Source: Chloroflexota bacterium
GTDB taxonomy: Bacteria > Desulfobacterota > Binatia > UBA9968
NCBI GenBank assembly: GCA_050257635.1
Contig: JBLMXG010000344.1
Coordinates: 9,190-73,189, forward strand
DNA length: 64,000 nucleotides
Direction: 5' to 3'
Shown here: positions 2,919 through 58,027 of the stretch, piece by piece
Layout of the letters: each line of letters starts with the position of its first letter
How positions within the stretch are numbered: the first letter of the stretch is position 1
The notes under the pieces: model-generated
Databases searched by the model: none
Told to the model about the DNA's origin: nothing
Seen by the model: only the letters and a program-made list of their open reading frames with translations
Translations under genes and position numbers: made by a program

Positions 2919-3175
2919 TAAAAAAGATCGGAAATTACAAGGATTTTTGAAGATTTTGAGAGGATCTAATCAACATATCGCCGGGCGGCTGCTCGCTCAC
3001 TACCAGCGGTAGAAAACGGGTGTAAAAACAACCCATGACGTTTTTTACCTGGGAAGCGCACGACACGTCGGTTTAGTTCGAATCAAAAATTGTTGGAAAC
3101 CTTTGTGTCACGCAGTCTCATGAGATGGGAGGCTGTTGGGCCGGGTCAATTTCAGAAAAGGAGAGTGACAGGTAA

Positions 3176-3552
3176 GTGGGCTAAAGTGGATCGATAAGCC
3201 GGATTCTGTGATGGCCCGTAGATGGGCCACAGCGATCATTCATCTTGCCCCTAGATTGCTCTAGGGGTCGAGCGACCTTACCCGAGGGCTACGGGCGGAC
3301 TACCCAACCCTCCTATTTGGCCTTGCTCCGGGTGGGGTTTGCCATGCGCCCGCCATTACTGACGAGCCGGTGAGCTCTTACCTCGCCTTTTCAACCTTAC
3401 CGGTCGTATAAACGGCCGGCGGTATATTTTCTGTGGTACTTTCCCCCGATCGCACGGGGCCGTCGTTAACGGCCACCCCGTCCTTTGGAGTCCGGACTTT
3501 CCTCCCTCCGTGTATTCCACGAAGAGCGATCGCTTGATCCACTTTAGCCCGC
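3176..3552 (-). ncRNA. rnpB: RNase P RNA, bacterial type A
   Basis: Reverse complement contains universal blocks GGAGGAAAGUCCGGACUCCAAAGG, GGUAAGAGCUCACCG, AAACCCCACCCGGAGCAAGGCCAAAUAGG, AGAUGAAUGA and ACAGAAUCCGGCUUAUCG, collinear with E. coli M1 RNA. A P1 stem forms between GGGCUAAAGUGGAUC (5') and GAUCCACUUUAGCCC (3'). Ends are +/- a few nt. Confidence 0.96.
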
Positions 3553-3978
3553 AGTTACCCTTTTAGTTGCTTGGTCGATGCCTTGATTGGCTAATCGATC
3601 TGCGAGTCTATTCGATTCGCGACGCACATGAACAATACGATAGGAATCGAACTGACGCAATAAATCCATCGCGCGTTGATATTTCACTTTTAACTTTTCA
3701 TCTTTGACCCGATAGATCCCGTTCAGCTGCCGCACCATCAGCTCAGAATCGCTCTGGACAATGATATTTTTTTGCCCGAGCTGCAGCAGTGTTTCCAGCC
3801 CCATCAATAGACCTTCATATTCGGCAACGTTATTCGTCGACCGACCTAGATAACGGCTCATTTCTTGAACGAGCGTGCCATTTTCATCAAGAATCGCCGC
3901 CCCGCACCCAGCCTCGCCCGGATTACCGCGCGCGGCGCCGTCAACCATCAGGAGCCACTGCTTTATCGATTCCGCCAT
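3544..3978 (-). CDS. rnhA: Ribonuclease HI family protein
   Basis: 144-aa ORF with RNase H type-1 pattern VDGAARGNPGEAGCG..NNVAEYEGLL..VQSDSELMV..ESNRLADRLA (DEDD-type residues in the expected order). Confidence 0.8.
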   Translation of the reverse strand: MAESIKQWLLMVDGAARGNPGEAGCGAAILDENGTLVQEMSRYLGRSTNNVAEYEGLLMGLETLLQLGQKNIIVQSDSELMVRQLNGIYRVKDEKLKVKYQRAMDLLRQFDSYRIVHVRRESNRLADRLANQGIDQATKRVTAG

Positions 3979-6443: not shown

Positions 6444-7841
6444 TCACAGCGCTAATTTGCGCGGGTTTAATATGTTGTTGGGGTCGAGGGTTTTCTTAAT
6501 CTGCCGCATCACTTCCAAGCCGTAGCCATGTTCTTCGGCCATGAGCGGCGCGAGCTTGACACCGACGCCGTGGGTATACTCCATCGACCCGCCCATTTGC
6601 TGGGCTAAGTGGAGCAATGCCTCGACGGTTTCTTCCAAGGTAAGCCGCGCGTTGGGCGTCGTCGCGCTCTCCTCGGCGCTCAAGCGCATGGAAAATAATT
6701 CCGGCTGGACCCACAAACCGCTCTCTTGGAGATCGACACCATGGCGACGCACGATCTCCTGCGCCGCAAGTTTGTAGACGAGCACTTGCGAGGCCGGCAG
6801 CGCGACATGAATCCAATCGCGGCAGATGCCATCCCGGCCGCGCTCGCGGCGCTGGCGGCGATTGCGCATGAAGCGGCGCGCGATGTCATGGCGCGCGAGC
6901 CAGAACTGCTCCGGTCCCTCTCGACCGACGTCTGCGCCACCGCCGGCTAAACAAATCCGTTCAGCCAGTTCCTGCTCAGCCGAAACCAGCTCCTCGGTGC
7001 CCTCGAAAACCAAATAGAGCAACGCTCCTGGTTCGTGCTTGTCCACATCGTCACCGAAGTCGAGCATCGCCGGGCGCAGGCGTGCGGCGAATAGGCTCTG
7101 AATCGCCGTGTAACCGATTTCAAAAGAGGAAAACAGGAAGCCAAGAAATACCCGCGCCGCAGGTCTTGGAAAAATTCGCAGGGTGGCTTCGGTGATGATG
7201 CCGAAACAGCCTTCGGCGCCGATTAGAAGCGCGTTGAGATTCAAGCCGGCCGAATGTTTCGATACCGCGCGCGTGCGCAGCAGCTCGCCGTTGGGCAGGA
7301 CCGCCTGCAGACCTAAAACCTGCTCGCCCATCGAACCGTAAATCCCGGCGCGGTAGCCGACGCTGTTCGTCGAGATCGCGCCTCCGACCGTCGCCACCGG
7401 CACCGTCCAGGGATCGTGGCCGAGGATGAACCCCGCTTCGTTTAATTTCTGGTCCAAAGATTCCAAGACCACACCGGCTTGGACGCGCGCCGCTCGCGCC
7501 ACCGGATCGATTTCGAGAATACGGTCCATGCCGCGCAAGTCGACAGTCACGCAAGGACCGATCGATAGCGCCCCGCCCATGAGTCCCGAGCCGCCGCCGA
7601 ACGGCACCAAAGCGATTTTTTCCTGATTGGCAAAGCGCACGATGCGTTGAACCTCCTCGGCGCTTCGCGGTCGGACTACGCAGAGCGGCGCGCGCACTTC
7701 GGGCTCATGCGCTGGATGGATCCGTCCCTCGCTCAATGCATCCCACGACAGCTCGTCGAGCAGCTCAGGGTCGCGCGAAATATGGGCAGGATCGATCCAG
7801 CTCGAAAGTTTACTGACAATTATCTCCGCGGGGATAGTCAT
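6444..7841 (-). CDS. FAD-binding oxidoreductase (GlcD / D-lactate dehydrogenase-like, FAD-linked oxidase family)
   Basis: 465-aa ORF. FAD_binding_4-like N-terminal half (ALVPFGGGSGLMGGA) and FAD-oxidase C-terminal pattern (HGVGVKLAPLM..DPNNILNPRKL). Confidence 0.75.
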   Translation of the reverse strand: MTIPAEIIVSKLSSWIDPAHISRDPELLDELSWDALSEGRIHPAHEPEVRAPLCVVRPRSAEEVQRIVRFANQEKIALVPFGGGSGLMGGALSIGPCVTVDLRGMDRILEIDPVARAARVQAGVVLESLDQKLNEAGFILGHDPWTVPVATVGGAISTNSVGYRAGIYGSMGEQVLGLQAVLPNGELLRTRAVSKHSAGLNLNALLIGAEGCFGIITEATLRIFPRPAARVFLGFLFSSFEIGYTAIQSLFAARLRPAMLDFGDDVDKHEPGALLYLVFEGTEELVSAEQELAERICLAGGGADVGREGPEQFWLARHDIARRFMRNRRQRRERGRDGICRDWIHVALPASQVLVYKLAAQEIVRRHGVDLQESGLWVQPELFSMRLSAEESATTPNARLTLEETVEALLHLAQQMGGSMEYTHGVGVKLAPLMAEEHGYGLEVMRQIKKTLDPNNILNPRKLAL

Positions 7842-35964: not shown

Positions 35965-38655
35965 CTACCTTGTCGGCTTAGTCTTCGCAGCCACTGCCGC
36001 TACCGGTGCGGGCGCCGGAGCACCGCGCCCGATACTCATCAGATAATCTCGCAGCGCCTCGATTTGCAAATCTTCCTTGCCGCCGAGAATATCATCAGGA
36101 CCGCCGGGATAAAACGACGGCATCTTGGTCCCAGGCTGAACCTTCTGCGGGTCCTTCAACCACTTGAGAATCCAGTTCGGGTTGAGCCGTTGGCGCGCCA
36201 TGGTCAAATCCGGAGCCCATCCTTCAACCGGGCCCTCGGGCTTCTTGTCGCCCTGCTGATGACAGCTGAAACAATTGAAGTAGTCTTTCGACACCAGCTG
36301 TTTTGCCGCTTCGAGATACTCCGGCGGAATTTTTTTGTCGTCTACATAAGCATAGGGAATTTCAACGTGTGAAAGCCCGTTAAAATAGCTCACCAGCTGA
36401 TTCGCGTGCTCGTCGGATAAACCAAATGTCGGCATGCGAAGTTGCAGCCATGGCCTAATGGGTATCGGCGATTTGAGAAAACTGAAAAACCAATTCGATT
36501 GGACCTTCTCGCCTTCGCCATTGAGTATCGGCGGAGCCAGTGTTGGGTTCTCTTGATAGTATTTTCGAATGAAACCACCGCGCTTTTCAATTTCATGGCA
36601 GCCAATGCAATTGTATTCCTGCATCAAGCGGCGGCCTTCCACCACCTGTTGGACGCGCAAACCTTGATCGGCTTGAAACTGCTGACCCACTTTGCGCTCG
36701 CGGAACCCGCCGAGCAGGGTCCGCAACGCGCGGATGTCCTCGTCTGCCAAATCGAATTGCGGCATCAATTGTTCAATCCGCTCCGTAGCGTAAATGCGTG
36801 GGGTCTTGAGCTTGTTGTAAGTCCAATCGTCCCACGTTTCTTTGATATCGGTGCGGTTGCCGAAGAAAAGTTCTTCCCTTGCCTTGGAGCCGAAGGTAGT
36901 GAGTTCGGCGCCGATGCGGGTCTCCTTTTCCATGTCTTTAATATCGTGACAGCCGAAACAGCCCCACTTGCGCACCAGCGATTCGCCACGCTTGATGTTT
37001 TTGGCGTCGGCGAGTTTCTCCTGAATTCCCGCCATGGGTTCGGTCCTAGTCCCCAGAGTCATCAAATAGGTGGTGATTGCGAGCGCCTCGTTATCCGATA
37101 AGCGCAAGCTGGGCATACGTGTGTCTGGTGAAAACCCGCGGGGGTTTTTCAGCCAATGATACACCCATTGAGGGCCAACTTTAGCCGCAATGTCTTTTAA
37201 GTTTGGAACCAGATCTTTGGATTTACCCAGCGGAGTCGTGAATTCCCCATCGGCAAAACCGTGGCAGCCTCTGCAGCCGATCGAATCAACTAGCTTTTTG
37301 CCTTCGGCCACAGCGTTTGGATCGCCCTCTCGGTAAACAGCGGGCAGAGGATGCTCCTGCGTCCACTTTTCGCCCGGCTCCTTCGACTGCGACCAGATAT
37401 AGGAAGCGATGGCGATCGCGTCCGCTTCTTTGAGATCGAAGTTCGGCATGCGCGTGCGCGGCCGGAATTTATGCGGGTTTTCGATCCAACGCACCATCCA
37501 ACTCGGGTCGACCTTGGCGCTGATCTTTAGCAAGCTAGGAGCGATCTTCGGGATATTCTCGTAGCCTTTGACCAGATGGCAACCGGTGCAGCCGACCTGC
37601 TCGAACAGCCGCTGGCCCTCCGCCAAGAGCGGTGCATCTTCGGCGAATTTTTGCACGTCAAGATGACAGGAGGTGCAACTGGATTGCGCCTTGGCGCCAC
37701 GCAGCAGTGGAAAATCCCACAAAGGAACCTCGCCATGCGCCTGCTTGATGCTATTCACGGCTACGCCCTGGCCCTCATGACATCCGGTGCAACCGAATTT
37801 ATCGGGCGGGTGCGCGTTATCGGCCAACAAAACCTCGCGGCGGGGATGGGTTTTGAAGGGATTGGGTTCCTTCTCAAAGCCGGGCCGGTTGATCGCCATG
37901 TGGCAAGTTTGGCAACGATCGACACGCGCCACCGGTTGGTCGAAGCCGTTGCGGTCGAATCCCTCCAGCGACACCTGCTGGATCTTGGGAATTTTGAAGA
38001 AGGTAAATGGTCCTAGCTTAAAGGTGTCATTTTCCATCACCCGGACCCACTTGTCGCGTTCGGCGCTCAGCTTGGCGAGCTCGTCCTCTATCCCTTTCCC
38101 GCCGCTTTGGAGTTTTTTGACGTCTTCTTTGAGTTGATCGCGCTTTGCGCGGGCGGGTTCAAGAAGCTTGTCGAGTTCCGCTTTTTCTTTATCCAGGGTC
38201 GCGATCGTTTCCAGGTAGGGTTTGGGATTACGCTGCTGCTGGACCGCGTGGTCGTGTTCATACCACGCTTCCTCCAGTTCGCTTTTAACGTCTTTGACTT
38301 TTTGGTCGATCTCGTTAAACTTGATCGTCGCCTGAGCTTCTTCGCTTTCCAGCACTTTGAGTTTCCTGCTCAATTCGCCGCTGTTGAGACTTGAATCAAA
38401 CTCTGCCAGCTTCTTCGATAGTTCCTGGTATTTGGCATCTTCCCGCAGCTTTTTGTCCTCTTCGTCGTAGGCAGCCTTCGCCTTGTTGTAATCGAGACGG
38501 TAAAAGCTTGCCTGAATGGCTTTCCACGGGCGCCGCGAAAAGTTGTCATCCCAGTACGCCCACAAAGACAGCGCCACCAACAAAGCTATGCCGATGACGA
38601 AGACACTGCCGTAGGATTTTTTCTCTTCTTTTTGGTCGATTCCTCGCTCCGCCAT
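35965..38655 (-). CDS. Membrane-anchored octahaem cytochrome c (3 clustered CxxCH + 5 class-I-like cytochrome c domains)
   Basis: Eight CxxCH motifs: CQTCH, CTGCH, CTSCH, CTGCH, CRGCH, CFGCH, CIGCH, CFSCH. The last five are each followed by a (R/K/L)MP(N/S/Q/T)F Met-ligand motif. N-terminal TM helix plus a ~150-aa coiled coil. Start ATG 38655 preceded by AAGGGAG. Confidence 0.85.
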   Translation of the reverse strand: MAERGIDQKEEKKSYGSVFVIGIALLVALSLWAYWDDNFSRRPWKAIQASFYRLDYNKAKAAYDEEDKKLREDAKYQELSKKLAEFDSSLNSGELSRKLKVLESEEAQATIKFNEIDQKVKDVKSELEEAWYEHDHAVQQQRNPKPYLETIATLDKEKAELDKLLEPARAKRDQLKEDVKKLQSGGKGIEDELAKLSAERDKWVRVMENDTFKLGPFTFFKIPKIQQVSLEGFDRNGFDQPVARVDRCQTCHMAINRPGFEKEPNPFKTHPRREVLLADNAHPPDKFGCTGCHEGQGVAVNSIKQAHGEVPLWDFPLLRGAKAQSSCTSCHLDVQKFAEDAPLLAEGQRLFEQVGCTGCHLVKGYENIPKIAPSLLKISAKVDPSWMVRWIENPHKFRPRTRMPNFDLKEADAIAIASYIWSQSKEPGEKWTQEHPLPAVYREGDPNAVAEGKKLVDSIGCRGCHGFADGEFTTPLGKSKDLVPNLKDIAAKVGPQWVYHWLKNPRGFSPDTRMPSLRLSDNEALAITTYLMTLGTRTEPMAGIQEKLADAKNIKRGESLVRKWGCFGCHDIKDMEKETRIGAELTTFGSKAREELFFGNRTDIKETWDDWTYNKLKTPRIYATERIEQLMPQFDLADEDIRALRTLLGGFRERKVGQQFQADQGLRVQQVVEGRRLMQEYNCIGCHEIEKRGGFIRKYYQENPTLAPPILNGEGEKVQSNWFFSFLKSPIPIRPWLQLRMPTFGLSDEHANQLVSYFNGLSHVEIPYAYVDDKKIPPEYLEAAKQLVSKDYFNCFSCHQQGDKKPEGPVEGWAPDLTMARQRLNPNWILKWLKDPQKVQPGTKMPSFYPGGPDDILGGKEDLQIEALRDYLMSIGRGAPAPAPVAAVAAKTKPTR

Positions 38656-38665
38656 CCCAACTCCC

Positions 38666-38833
38666 TTACGCTGCTTTGCGCTCAAGCGCGCGGCCCAACG
38701 AAAAAACCCCGAGACCGATCAGCGTGAGTACTATTTCTTCAGCCATCGAAGAATTGTTCATGATGCCGACATAAAGCGCGTAGCCGATATCCGCGAGCCC
38801 AAGGGCCTGGAGTATCTTCGCCACGTAAAACAT
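38666..38833 (-). CDS. Unannotated 55-codon two-TM membrane protein inside the Rieske/cyt b operon
   Basis: Below the track cutoff. Own translation: MFYVAKILQALGLADIGYALYVGIMNNSSMAEEIVLTLIGLGVFSLGRALERKAA. The ATG overlaps the upstream TAA (TAATG). Its TAA sits in the Shine-Dalgarno 10 nt before the cytochrome c ATG. Confidence 0.6.
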   Translation of the reverse strand: MFYVAKILQALGLADIGYALYVGIMNNSSMAEEIVLTLIGLGVFSLGRALERKAA

Positions 38834-46577: not shown

Positions 46578-47834
46578 TTACGGCGCGAGCCGGCCAGCTT
46601 TAACCAATTCAACGACCGTTTGCGTTCGCAAATCGATCACGGCTAGTTCGTCCGTGCTCTCACAGCCAATGAACGCCAACTCACCGTACGGACTGAACGC
46701 GATATGCGCCGGCGCAGCGCCCACGGGCAAACAGGCTCGCAGTGCATGGGCGTGAACATCGATGAGGCAGACACTCGATTCGCCGGTATTCGACACAACC
46801 GCCCAATGGCTATCCGGACTGATGGCGAAGAAATGCGGATAGATACCAACGCGGATGGTCGCGATCACGCGATGATTTCGACAATCCCATACGGTCAGAT
46901 CATCGGACGCAAAATTCGCCACGTATCCGAAGCTCCCGTCCCGATCGAGCGCAGGCAAATGGGCGCCCTTGCCAGCGGGAATCGTCGTCACCGCCTCGTG
47001 ATTGGCCGTGTCGATGACAGTCACATCATCGGAGATCGTGTTCGCCACGTAAGCAAAGCGGCTTTCCGGATCGAAGGCGATATGCCCCGGTCCCAAGCCG
47101 ACTTTGATTTCGCCGGTCACGGAATAATCTCGGCCGTCGATCACGGTCACCGTATGCGACGCGGAATTAGGCTGGTAGGCCCACCGGCTATCTGGGGAAA
47201 CGGCAATGTCGTGCGGTGCGTCGCCGACCCCGACCTCGGCGTGAAACTCGCCCGCGCCACCGAGCACGGTCACAGATCGATCCGGCCCGCTCGGCAGGTA
47301 AACGCATCCATCCGGAGCTACGCAAGGGAGCAATGGACGTTTCCCCGTCGCTGCGGTGGCGATCACTTGATCGCTCGCCGTGTCGATGATTGTAACCGTG
47401 CTTGAGCCGCTGTTGGCGACATAAAGCCGCCGGCCGTCGTGGGATAATTCCAAATGGGATGGATCCGCGCCGACGCCGATATGCTTTATCACTCGCCGGG
47501 TGGAGCCGTCGATCACGGCCACGCGATCGTCCGTCGTGTTCGAGTAGACGCGCCCGTCGCGGTGACTGGCGACGGAATGAGCGCCGCGCAAGCCCAGGCG
47601 CGGCGTCGAACCGTCGGGGGAAAGGACGAGCGAAATGGAATTGCCGTCGCGCTCAAGTATCACGCGATAACCGCGTTCCAGCATCGAGATGTACTGCCGC
47701 ACCGGGAGAGCGCCGACTCGCGCTCGAACCACTCCGTTGTGGCCGCGCAGCGCGACGAATTGCTCTTTTAATCGCGCCACCTGCTTCTCCGGCGTCAGCG
47801 CAACAAGATCAAGCTGAACGGTTTGAGGAGCCAT
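46578..47834 (-). CDS. YVTN-type beta-propeller repeat protein with ~75-aa N-terminal DUF2249-like domain
   Basis: 418 aa. Repeated ..YVAN..S..V.VID.. blades (at least 7). The N-terminal segment LDLVALTPEKQVARLKEQFVALRG..RVILERDGNSISLVLSP is distinct from the propeller. Confidence 0.65.
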   Translation of the reverse strand: MAPQTVQLDLVALTPEKQVARLKEQFVALRGHNGVVRARVGALPVRQYISMLERGYRVILERDGNSISLVLSPDGSTPRLGLRGAHSVASHRDGRVYSNTTDDRVAVIDGSTRRVIKHIGVGADPSHLELSHDGRRLYVANSGSSTVTIIDTASDQVIATAATGKRPLLPCVAPDGCVYLPSGPDRSVTVLGGAGEFHAEVGVGDAPHDIAVSPDSRWAYQPNSASHTVTVIDGRDYSVTGEIKVGLGPGHIAFDPESRFAYVANTISDDVTVIDTANHEAVTTIPAGKGAHLPALDRDGSFGYVANFASDDLTVWDCRNHRVIATIRVGIYPHFFAISPDSHWAVVSNTGESSVCLIDVHAHALRACLPVGAAPAHIAFSPYGELAFIGCESTDELAVIDLRTQTVVELVKAGRLAP

Positions 47835-56567: not shown

Positions 56568-56807
56568 CTACAGGAACTTTCCCACCAGAAATTGGTTGAT
56601 CTCCTCCGAGCCGCGCAGCGGCTTGCCGTCGACCACCAGAACCGGGACCGTCTTCGCTCCGGTAATCTCGATCAGCTCCCTTTCGTAGTCGGAATTCTCG
56701 CGGATATTCTTTCTGGTAATCTGTGCTTCGCAATGAAGATTGGTCATGCAATTGAGCACGCTCTGGGAGAAACCGCATTCGTTGTAGAAATAGAGCTCCA
56801 TGGCCAT
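56568..56807 (-). CDS. Small glutaredoxin-like (thioredoxin-fold) protein with CGFS motif
   Basis: 79 aa. ELYFYNECGFSQSV.. active-site region, ..TVPVLVVDGKPLRGSEEI.. (cis-Pro TVP and GG/GS region of Grx/NrdH fold). ATG lies 3 nt after the prx stop. Confidence 0.7.
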   Translation of the reverse strand: MAMELYFYNECGFSQSVLNCMTNLHCEAQITRKNIRENSDYERELIEITGAKTVPVLVVDGKPLRGSEEINQFLVGKFL

Positions 56808-56810
56808 AGA

Positions 56811-57281
56811 TCAGCTCTTGTTAATTTTTTGGCATTCAGTCAACAGGTCTTTGGGGTTGCGTTCCCCCGCCGGAGTCACCGAGGCGGCGTAGCGCACCAC
56901 GCCTTGTTTGTCGATGATAACCGTAGCGCGGTCCGTGATCCCTTTATCTTCGAGATACACGTCATACTTCTTTGCCATCTCCCCCTTGGGATGAAAATCC
57001 TGCAGCAGCGGAAACGAGATGCCGCCCAGCGATTTCGCCCAATTGTCGTGGGAGAATCTGCTGTCCACACTCACACCCAGAACCTGGGTGTCACAGGCCT
57101 TGAACTCATCCTTGAGAGCTTCGAGTCCAGGCACTTCTTTGCTTCAAGTCGGTGTCCAATCCAGGGGATAGAACACCAACATGACGTTTTTTTGCCCCTT
57201 GAACTGGCCGAGGGAAAACTTGGTTCCCGCCAAATGGCTGGCTAGTTCGAAGTCCGGCGCTGTTTTGCCGACTTCAATCAT
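56811..57281 (-). CDS. PrxQ/BCP-type peroxiredoxin with in-frame TGA (candidate selenocysteine) at the peroxidatic position
   Basis: The track shows only 56811-57134. Reading the same frame from ATG 57281 (AAGGAGGAG 8 nt upstream) gives MIEVGKTAPDFELASHLAGTKFSLGQFKGQKNVMLVFYPLDWTPT[TGA 57144-57146]SKEVPGLEALKDEFKACDTQVLGVSVDSRFSHDNWAK... The TGA replaces the Cys of the FYPxDxTPxC(T/S)KE motif. Confidence 0.7.
57097..57132 (-). promoter_or_regulatory. Candidate SECIS hairpin
   Basis: mRNA GCCUGGACUC-GAAGCUCUCAAGGAU-GAGUUCAAGGC. A 10-bp stem with one bulged A and one G-U pair, starting 11 nt 3' of the UGA, with a G-containing apical loop. Confidence 0.45.
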
Positions 57282-57307
57282 GTCGATTACTCCTCCTTAA
57301 AAAAAAT

Positions 57308-57329
57308 TGAGCGCTCGCGGGAACGCTCA
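57308..57329. promoter_or_regulatory. Inverted repeat TGAGCG-N10-CGCTCA between -10 box and RBS of the prx gene (operator or 5'-UTR hairpin)
   Basis: Plus strand has tgagcg at 57308-57313 and cgctca at 57324-57329, located between the predicted -10 (57336-57341) and the Shine-Dalgarno. Confidence 0.35.
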
Positions 57330-57335
57330 CGGAAG

Positions 57336-57363
57336 ATTATAAACGGTGTGCAGACGAATTCAA
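57336..57363 (-). promoter_or_regulatory. Sigma70-type promoter of the prx-grx operon (TTGAAT-16 nt-TATAAT)
   Basis: Minus strand has TTGAAT (57363-57358), a 16-nt spacer, then TATAAT (57341-57336), about 55 nt upstream of ATG 57281. Confidence 0.55.
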
Positions 57364-57523: not shown

Positions 57524-58027
57524 TTATTTTGCCGCGGCCAAAACCGCGTCGTAATTCGGCTGCTCGCCGATGTTCGGGACATACTCGACATGCTTGAGCT
57601 TGTTATCTGCACCGATGACGAATACCGCGCGCGCAAGCACGCGATCGAGCGGGCCTCCGGAAATCAAAACGCCGTAGTTCTTGCCAAAAGACGCATCGCG
57701 GTGATCGCTGGCCGTGACAACTTTGTCGACGTTGGCAGCGCCACACCAGCGTTTCTGCGCGAACGGCAGATCCATGCTAACACAAACCACTTCGACGTTG
57801 GCAAGCTTGCTCGCTTCCTCGTTGAAGCGCTTGGTTTCGAGATCGCACACAGGGGTATCGAGCGAAGGCACCGTGGCGATGATGCGGGTTTTGCCGGTGC
57901 CGCTCGCCAGTGTGTAGTCACTCAAGTCCGCGCTTTTTTGCACCTTGAAATCCGGCGCGTTTTGGCCGACTTTTACTTCATTGCCCAGCAGCGTCAACGT
58001 CGCGTCTTTAAACTTCACCGTGGCCAT
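57524..58027 (-). CDS. tpx: Thiol peroxidase Tpx
   Basis: 167 aa. ..TVPSLDTPVCDLETKRFN.. (peroxidatic Cys) and ..VVCVSMDLPFAQKRWCGA.. (resolving Cys region), classic Tpx. Confidence 0.9.
   Translation of the reverse strand: MATVKFKDATLTLLGNEVKVGQNAPDFKVQKSADLSDYTLASGTGKTRIIATVPSLDTPVCDLETKRFNEEASKLANVEVVCVSMDLPFAQKRWCGAANVDKVVTASDHRDASFGKNYGVLISGGPLDRVLARAVFVIGADNKLKHVEYVPNIGEQPNYDAVLAAAK

Follow-up and report, generated by a model that had tools for sequence, protein, structure and literature searches.

A probable selenocysteine-containing AhpE-like peroxiredoxin, split by ORF calling and linked to a glutaredoxin-like gene, in a Binatia-type MAG

In the window analysed here (i.e., the whole 64-kb stretch of DNA, from a Binatia-type MAG), a mechanical ORF list reports only two short minus-strand ORFs at one peroxiredoxin-like locus, a 45-aa ORF (57144-57281) and a 107-aa ORF (56811-57134, start GTG 57134), with an in-frame TGA between the two coding stretches. 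The question that this locus raises is whether it represents a broken gene, of which at most a C-terminal fragment is made, or an intact gene in which the TGA is translated and, if so, which amino acid is inserted. The first-pass annotation of this DNA had taken the second position, describing a candidate selenoprotein gene with the TGA exactly at the codon of the peroxidatic Cys and split in two by ORF calling. On the evidence presented below, we consider it very probable that the locus is one intact gene for a 156-residue AhpE-like peroxiredoxin (Prx) with selenocysteine (Sec) as its peroxidatic residue.

Reading frame and peroxiredoxin subfamily

Read on the minus strand, the frame runs from ATG 57281 through 45 sense codons, the internal TGA (57146-57144) and 110 further sense codons to a second TGA (56813-56811), which yields a gene of 156 codons (56811-57281, minus strand) with the predicted Sec at codon 46. 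The sequence around the internal TGA is ..VMLVFYPLDWTPT[TGA]SKEVPGLEALKDEF.., and the frame is coding on either side of it. With the TGA replaced by Cys, the joined product of 156 aa was spanned by Pfam AhpC-TSA (profile 1-123/124, E 4e-37) and also matched Pfam Redoxin. The 49 additional same-frame codons up to ATG 57281 that had been proposed upstream of the 107-aa ORF are borne out by this minus-strand reading, as is the proposed Shine-Dalgarno sequence 8 nt before the ATG (AAGGAGGAG, 57290-57298, minus strand). A similar purine-rich stretch (GGAGG/GAAGG/GAGG variants) followed by ATG was present in most of 15 aligned relatives. Further upstream, a sigma-70-like promoter for the prx-grx unit (TTGAAT-16-TATAAT, 57336-57363, minus strand) matches the consensus at 10 of 12 positions, and its -35 (TTGAA) and -10 (TATA) cores are invariant in all 15 aligned relatives.

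By contrast with this conserved upstream start, among 42 sequences 27 have ATT, ATA or ATC in place of the GTG at which the 107-aa ORF begins, and 14 have no in-frame ATG, GTG or TTG within 21 codons past the TGA. The GTG had been suspected to be an artificial start, and its lack of conservation in relatives agrees with that suspicion; judged by these comparisons, the downstream-only ORF is not credible as a gene.

In its 5' leader, between the promoter and the Shine-Dalgarno sequence, the prx-grx unit holds a separate structure, a terminator-like hairpin of 9 bp (TGAGCGTTC-CCGC-GAGCGCTCA, followed by AT8; 57299-57329, minus strand) with a folding energy of -16.5 kcal/mol (z -2.05). Of 14 aligned relatives, 8 keep this hairpin, and one G-C to A-T change in it is compensatory; it could serve as a stabilising stem at the 5' terminus, as an attenuator or as an operator for a regulator.

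With regard to subfamily, the protein is AhpE-like in both sequence and fold. The best PDB sequence match is Mycobacterium tuberculosis AhpE (1xxu; E 5e-26, 94.8 bits, 38% identity over 144 residues), compared with at most 78.5 bits for Prx1/AhpC-type chains and 58-64 bits for BCP-type chains. An AlphaFold model of a Cys orthologue (P0004, 66% identical to the window protein; pLDDT 96.6) had AhpE chains as all of its best 12 Foldseek matches in the PDB, with TM scores of 0.93-0.96 normalised on either chain and an rmsd of 1.2-1.5 A. The first-pass annotation had assigned the active-site block to the PrxQ/BCP type; this assignment was rejected, given the BCP-type scores against that of AhpE, the AhpE structural matches and the low scores of the NCBIfam models for Bcp (PRK09437, 46 bits vs. 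a cut-off of 140) and PrxQ (NF053650, 43.5 bits). The top NCBIfam model was that of PrxU (NF040737), and orthology with PrxU was likewise rejected, as the model reached only 89.3 bits against a cut-off of 270 and was covered in part (positions 35-190 of 233).

The catalytic set of the window protein comprises Pro39, Thr43, the predicted Sec46 and Arg118, the last of which is invariant; the motif reads P39-L-D-W-T43-P-T-U46. The protein is compact (156 aa) and has no Prx1-type C-terminal extension. Its two Cys residues, C63 and C150, are each replaced by Ala or another residue in many Sec orthologues, and this lack of conservation points to a 1-Cys-type (here 1-Sec) mechanism.

Conservation of the TGA and rival readings

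The internal TGA (57144-57146, minus strand) falls, in the alignment of homologues, on the column of the peroxidatic Cys, where the predicted Sec46 completes the motif P39-x-x-x-T43-x-x-U46; Cys45 (CP) of M. tuberculosis AhpE aligns with the same column. A scan of a genome collection, with one genome per species, identified 64 related loci. TGA occupies this codon in all 41 of the related genome loci with 54-94% identity, whereas 15 distant homologues (39-51% identity), from Solirubrobacterales, Thermoleophilia, Corallococcus and Myxococcales, carry TGC. The placement of the TGA at the peroxidatic Cys, as first proposed, is therefore supported both by AhpE and by these TGC homologues, and the suggested check of the codon in relatives gave a uniform TGA in the closer loci and TGC in the distant ones. 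The MAGs that hold the 41 TGA loci bear the labels Binatia or "delta proteobacterium", SAR324, Myxococcota, Planctomycetota and Verrucomicrobiia; Candidatus Binatia is the label of most close loci, and the nearest one (L001, CAVSHR010000012.1; 94% identical) lies in a MAG with the label "uncultured delta proteobacterium".

Strong purifying selection acts before as well as after the TGA. Relative to 30 orthologues, dN/dS, taken from pairs with estimable dS because synonymous sites are largely saturated (dS often >1), was ~0.02-0.15 in the 45 upstream codons and ~0.02-0.16 in 100 downstream codons, typically ~0.05 in each, and tblastn detected the N-terminal 45 aa in each of the Sec loci. The earlier claim that family-like sequence continues in one frame on both sides of the TGA holds up on these figures.

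Several MAGs carry two separate Sec-Prx loci, each with TGA, i.e., L016 and L019 in MFD04935.bin.1.83, L006 and L021 in MFD09730.bin.4.339, and L031 and L062 in SAR324 PL24a_bin.25. In two other loci, L036 (3139-3497) and L037 (3139-3465), the TGA is kept and the frame breaks 57-63 codons later, which may reflect a frameshift, an assembly error or decay.

Among the rival accounts, the one that survives best, although we regard it as unlikely, is that the UGA is translated as something other than Sec, either under a reassigned code (Trp or Gly) or by near-cognate read-through (Trp or Cys). This account can draw on the many database orthologue entries in which W or G fills the Sec column (code 4 or 25) and on the fact that no Sec machinery was seen within the 64-kb window. 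However, the same gene ends at a TGA 110 codons further on, at a position where orthologues end in TAA or TAG, and TGA also ends many other window genes with complete Pfam domains (e.g., a FAD-linked oxidase at 6444-7841). The column is, moreover, the peroxidatic one, occupied by Cys in distant homologues, and Trp or Gly there would abolish activity; stable folding past the UGA is enriched in the TGA lineages alone. As to the database entries themselves, W stands at the Sec column in P0001, P0002, P0005, P0006, P0010, P0025 and P0072 and G in P0043, evidently because the submitting pipelines applied code 4 or 25 to a TGA codon; P0043, an NCBI protein, comes from a Planctomycetota MAG, and the Planctomycetota loci L039 and L040 have TGA at this codon.

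A second and markedly less probable account is that a nonsense mutation has left a pseudogene or truncated gene that yields no more than the product of the 107-aa C-terminal ORF. Exactly such a split is what ORF and gene callers report, and two of the relatives (L036 and L037) appear frameshifted downstream. Against this stand the retention of TGA in 41 of 41 loci despite saturated synonymous divergence, the low dN/dS in the 45 codons upstream, the conservation of a promoter and an SD-like stretch at the upstream ATG, and the nature of the 107-aa ORF itself, which has no conserved start codon and would lack the catalytic residue. The comparative data already bring this account close to refutation. 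Finally, that the TGA is a sequencing or assembly error for TGC or TGT is a generic possibility for any single MAG, with nothing specific in its favour, and it is already refuted by the occurrence of TGA in 41 other species and of the identical 45-aa plus 107-aa split in five assemblies of this organism, obtained independently from different runs, among which one exact 201-nt match including the TGA was confirmed. Taken together, the conserved TGA, the selection on both sides, the start- and stop-codon data and the five assemblies make a pseudogene, a sequencing error and a reassigned code all very unlikely, and the residue inserted at the UGA is predicted to be Sec.

The hairpin after the UGA and Sec machinery

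A candidate bacterial SECIS, an imperfect hairpin of 36 nt (57097-57132, minus strand), starts 11 nt after the UGA, and has at its core an 8-bp helix (57129-57122 / 57108-57101) and an apical region of 13 nt. Taken alone, the window hairpin is no more stable than dinucleotide shuffles (z -0.03), and its stability relative to synonymous-codon shuffles within the gene also falls short of significance (z -1.36, p 0.086). Across the family, the 54 nt after the UGA formed a more stable fold than did their synonymous recodings for 41 of the 42 Sec sequences (mean z -1.78), compared with a mean z of -0.55 for the equivalent region of 15 Cys homologues, 11 of which were negative; the difference between Sec and Cys loci (Mann-Whitney p 4e-4) is an optimistic estimate, as the sequences are phylogenetically related.

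Folding recovered a stem-loop after the UGA in every Sec locus. RNAalifold found no consensus structure for the 42 post-UGA sequences, and the hairpins fall into three lineage-specific registers that have a 3' arm in common: this arm, at 57108-57101 of the window, reads GAGTTC/GAATTC (codons for Glu-Phe), is nearly invariant and pairs with three different 5' partners according to lineage. When a single register was imposed, 67.7% of cells were paired, vs. 62.9% in shuffles. Rfam matched no SECIS family in the whole window at the gathering threshold, nor in 56950-57250 at E values up to 10, so that the covariance-model check suggested in the first-pass annotation came out negative around the hairpin; at the start of the apical loop, no clear canonical G is seen in the fold of minimum free energy. 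The hairpin that had been described at 11 nt past the UGA thus exists (57132-57097), while its signal is weaker and more variable among lineages than had been implied. These data suggest that selection maintains a stem-loop at a set spacing from the UGA and not any one sequence, which is how bacterial SECIS elements have been described (PMC1088965), and we infer that the hairpin is the SECIS of this gene.

No genes for Sec insertion were found in the region covered. Pfam identified no selA, selB or selD among the 20 largest ORFs of the 64-kb window, ARAGORN identified no tRNA genes in the window, and the flanks of the 41 related loci had neither a tRNA-Sec (ARAGORN) nor selA, selB or selD. A search of the window for other selenoprotein genes, as TGA-joined ORF pairs with coding-like GC3, returned only the Sec-Prx and ordinary adjacent genes. 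Pairing of Prx with SelW has been reported in GOS; near the SAR324 and Binatia loci, SelW-like or CxxU neighbours amounted to noise only. A literature search on Sec use in Binatia or Binatota retrieved no relevant paper. Other contents of the window include a full-length bacterial class A RNase P RNA (3179-3545, minus strand; 309 bits, Rfam), a gene for a 906-aa protein with multiple cytochrome c or multihaem-type domains (35965-38685, minus strand) and, ~8 kb from the latter, a beta-propeller (YNCE/lactonase-like) gene (46578-47834).

The glutaredoxin-like partner and known systems

Directly downstream of the Sec-Prx gene lies a gene for a 79-aa glutaredoxin-like (Grx-like) protein (56568-56807, minus strand) with a C11-G-F-S active site and cis-Pro55, which matches Pfam Glutaredoxin (E 5e-8) and, weakly, glutaredoxins in the PDB. 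A grx-like gene occupies this position in ~29 of the 41 Sec loci, whereas no Cys locus has one there; the ~29 include in-frame Prx-Grx fusions in L035 and L038 (each 3001-3760), and L021 (3001-3720) shows an apparent fusion as well. Prx-Grx fusion proteins are also found in databases, with Cys in P0030, P0084 and P0088 and of the TGA type in P0046 (W at the Sec column). The linkage or fusion of the Grx-like gene to Sec-Prx is therefore directly visible in these loci. In the Grx-like proteins, C11, G12 and cis-Pro55 are invariant and the fourth residue of the active site varies between Ser and Cys, which implies that a monothiol mechanism suffices.

At the junction of the two window genes (56805-56813, minus strand), the prx stop TGA is followed one codon later by the in-frame ATG of the grx-like gene (..INKS-TGA-S-MAMELY..). 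A programmed read-through fusion of prx and grx was considered and rejected, since both the type of stop (TAA, TAG or TGA) and the frame vary in relatives, and the in-frame arrangement in the window appears to be a coincidence. On the other side of the Sec-Prx gene, a Cys-type thiol peroxidase (Tpx) gene (57524-58027, minus strand; NF001808, 211 bits vs. a cut-off of 123) has its own terminator-like hairpin (57408-57393); Tpx is also the upstream neighbour in 10 relatives.

In the mechanism that we propose, the promoter at 57363-57336 would drive transcription of prx together with the downstream grx-like gene, and translation would start at ATG 57281. The hairpin 11 nt past the UGA would recruit SelB with Sec-tRNA(Sec), such that Sec is inserted and translation does not terminate, while the second UGA (56813-56811), 110 codons on and without such a context, would act as the stop. 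In the Pro39/Thr43/Arg118 pocket, Sec46 would reduce a hydroperoxide and be converted to selenenic acid, which a low-molecular-weight thiol (glutathione or another) would convert to a selenenylsulfide, to be reduced in turn by the Grx-like CGFS protein. The lack of a conserved resolving Cys implies that Sec-Prx is recycled intermolecularly; the route would most likely involve glutathione or another low-molecular-weight thiol together with the co-transcribed CGFS Grx-like protein, by analogy with the recycling of AhpE through mycothiol and mycoredoxin-1 and with Prx-Grx hybrid enzymes. It is from gene linkage that the Grx-like protein plus a thiol is proposed as the likely reductant.

More broadly, the AhpE-like Sec-Prx and its dedicated CGFS/CGFC Grx-like partner might constitute a distinct, biochemically uncharacterised two-component selenoperoxidase module, i.e., a glutathione peroxidase analogue on a Prx scaffold, in Binatia, SAR324, Myxococcota and Planctomycetota, and would give a first sign of Sec decoding at UGA in the candidate phylum Binatota; we put this forward tentatively, as a reading with somewhat less than an even chance of being right. 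The locus indicates a testable Sec-Prx/Grx redox couple, and it suggests that the soil or sediment bacterium of Binatia type that carries it probably uses selenium. The gene further serves as an example of how gene callers cut selenoprotein genes in two: hundreds of entries from this clade stand in databases as truncated 107-aa fragments or with W or G wrongly shown as the catalytic residue, and, since no curated NCBIfam selenoprotein model reaches its cut-off on the window protein, automated pipelines will keep mis-calling the gene.

A number of known systems share some features with this module. Prx-Grx hybrid enzymes (e.g., Haemophilus influenzae Prx-Grx/PGdx) consist of a Prx5-type Prx domain, with Cys, and a C-terminal Grx. 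Coupling or fusion of Prx to Grx is thus common to both, with fused relatives of the Cys and of the TGA kind in the present family; by contrast, the Prx here is AhpE-like and carries Sec, and the two genes are separate in the window. AhpE (Rv2238c; PDB 1xxu, 1xvw, 4x0x, 5id2) is a 1-Cys peroxiredoxin that is recycled by mycothiol and mycoredoxin-1. It resembles the window protein in length, fold, CP column and the lack of a conserved resolving Cys, as well as in having a small glutaredoxin-fold partner, mycoredoxin-1, with which it is functionally paired. AhpE is, however, an actinobacterial Cys protein whose CGYC mycoredoxin is unlinked, whereas the window has a non-actinobacterial Sec protein with a linked CGFS/CGFC Grx-like partner. 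PrxU of Eubacterium acidaminophilum, reportedly characterised experimentally as a Sec-peroxiredoxin in 2001, likewise has Sec at the peroxidatic position, and its model (NF040737) is the best-scoring NCBIfam model for the window protein; the window protein differs in its length (156 aa, against a model of 233 positions) and in lacking the Prx1-type C-terminal extension.

The closest description is that of the Prx (TxxU) family, an established prokaryotic selenoprotein family (PMC1088965, PMC2398784, PMC13188914), and the first-pass annotation was correct in treating Sec-peroxiredoxins as an established class. The family was found in the Sargasso Sea and GOS selenoproteomes (PMC1088965, PMC2398784), with 253 members in GOS (PMC2398784), and a 2026 review lists it with the motif PxxxTxxU and PF00578 (PMC13188914). 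The window gene shares with it PF00578, a (here predicted) Sec in place of the peroxidatic Cys in PxxxTxxU, widespread Cys homologues, a stem-loop after the UGA and routine mis-annotation as a truncated gene, and its SAR324 relatives are marine metagenome organisms like those sampled in these studies. This likeness is one to the published description of the family, in which no Prx subfamily is assigned. With a Sec/Cys pair at the catalytic column, the PF00578 motif and conservation on both sides of the UGA, we place the window gene in the Prx (TxxU) family; it differs from the reported members in coming from a Binatia-type MAG, i.e., from a phylum for which no published mention of Sec was found. 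TxxU Sec-peroxiredoxins have been catalogued since 2001-2005, and the present locus leaves knowledge of selenoproteins as such unchanged; what it adds is the AhpE-like subfamily, the tight partnership or fusion with a Grx-like protein, the occurrence in a Binatia-type bacterium and the failure of curated models to rescue the gene.
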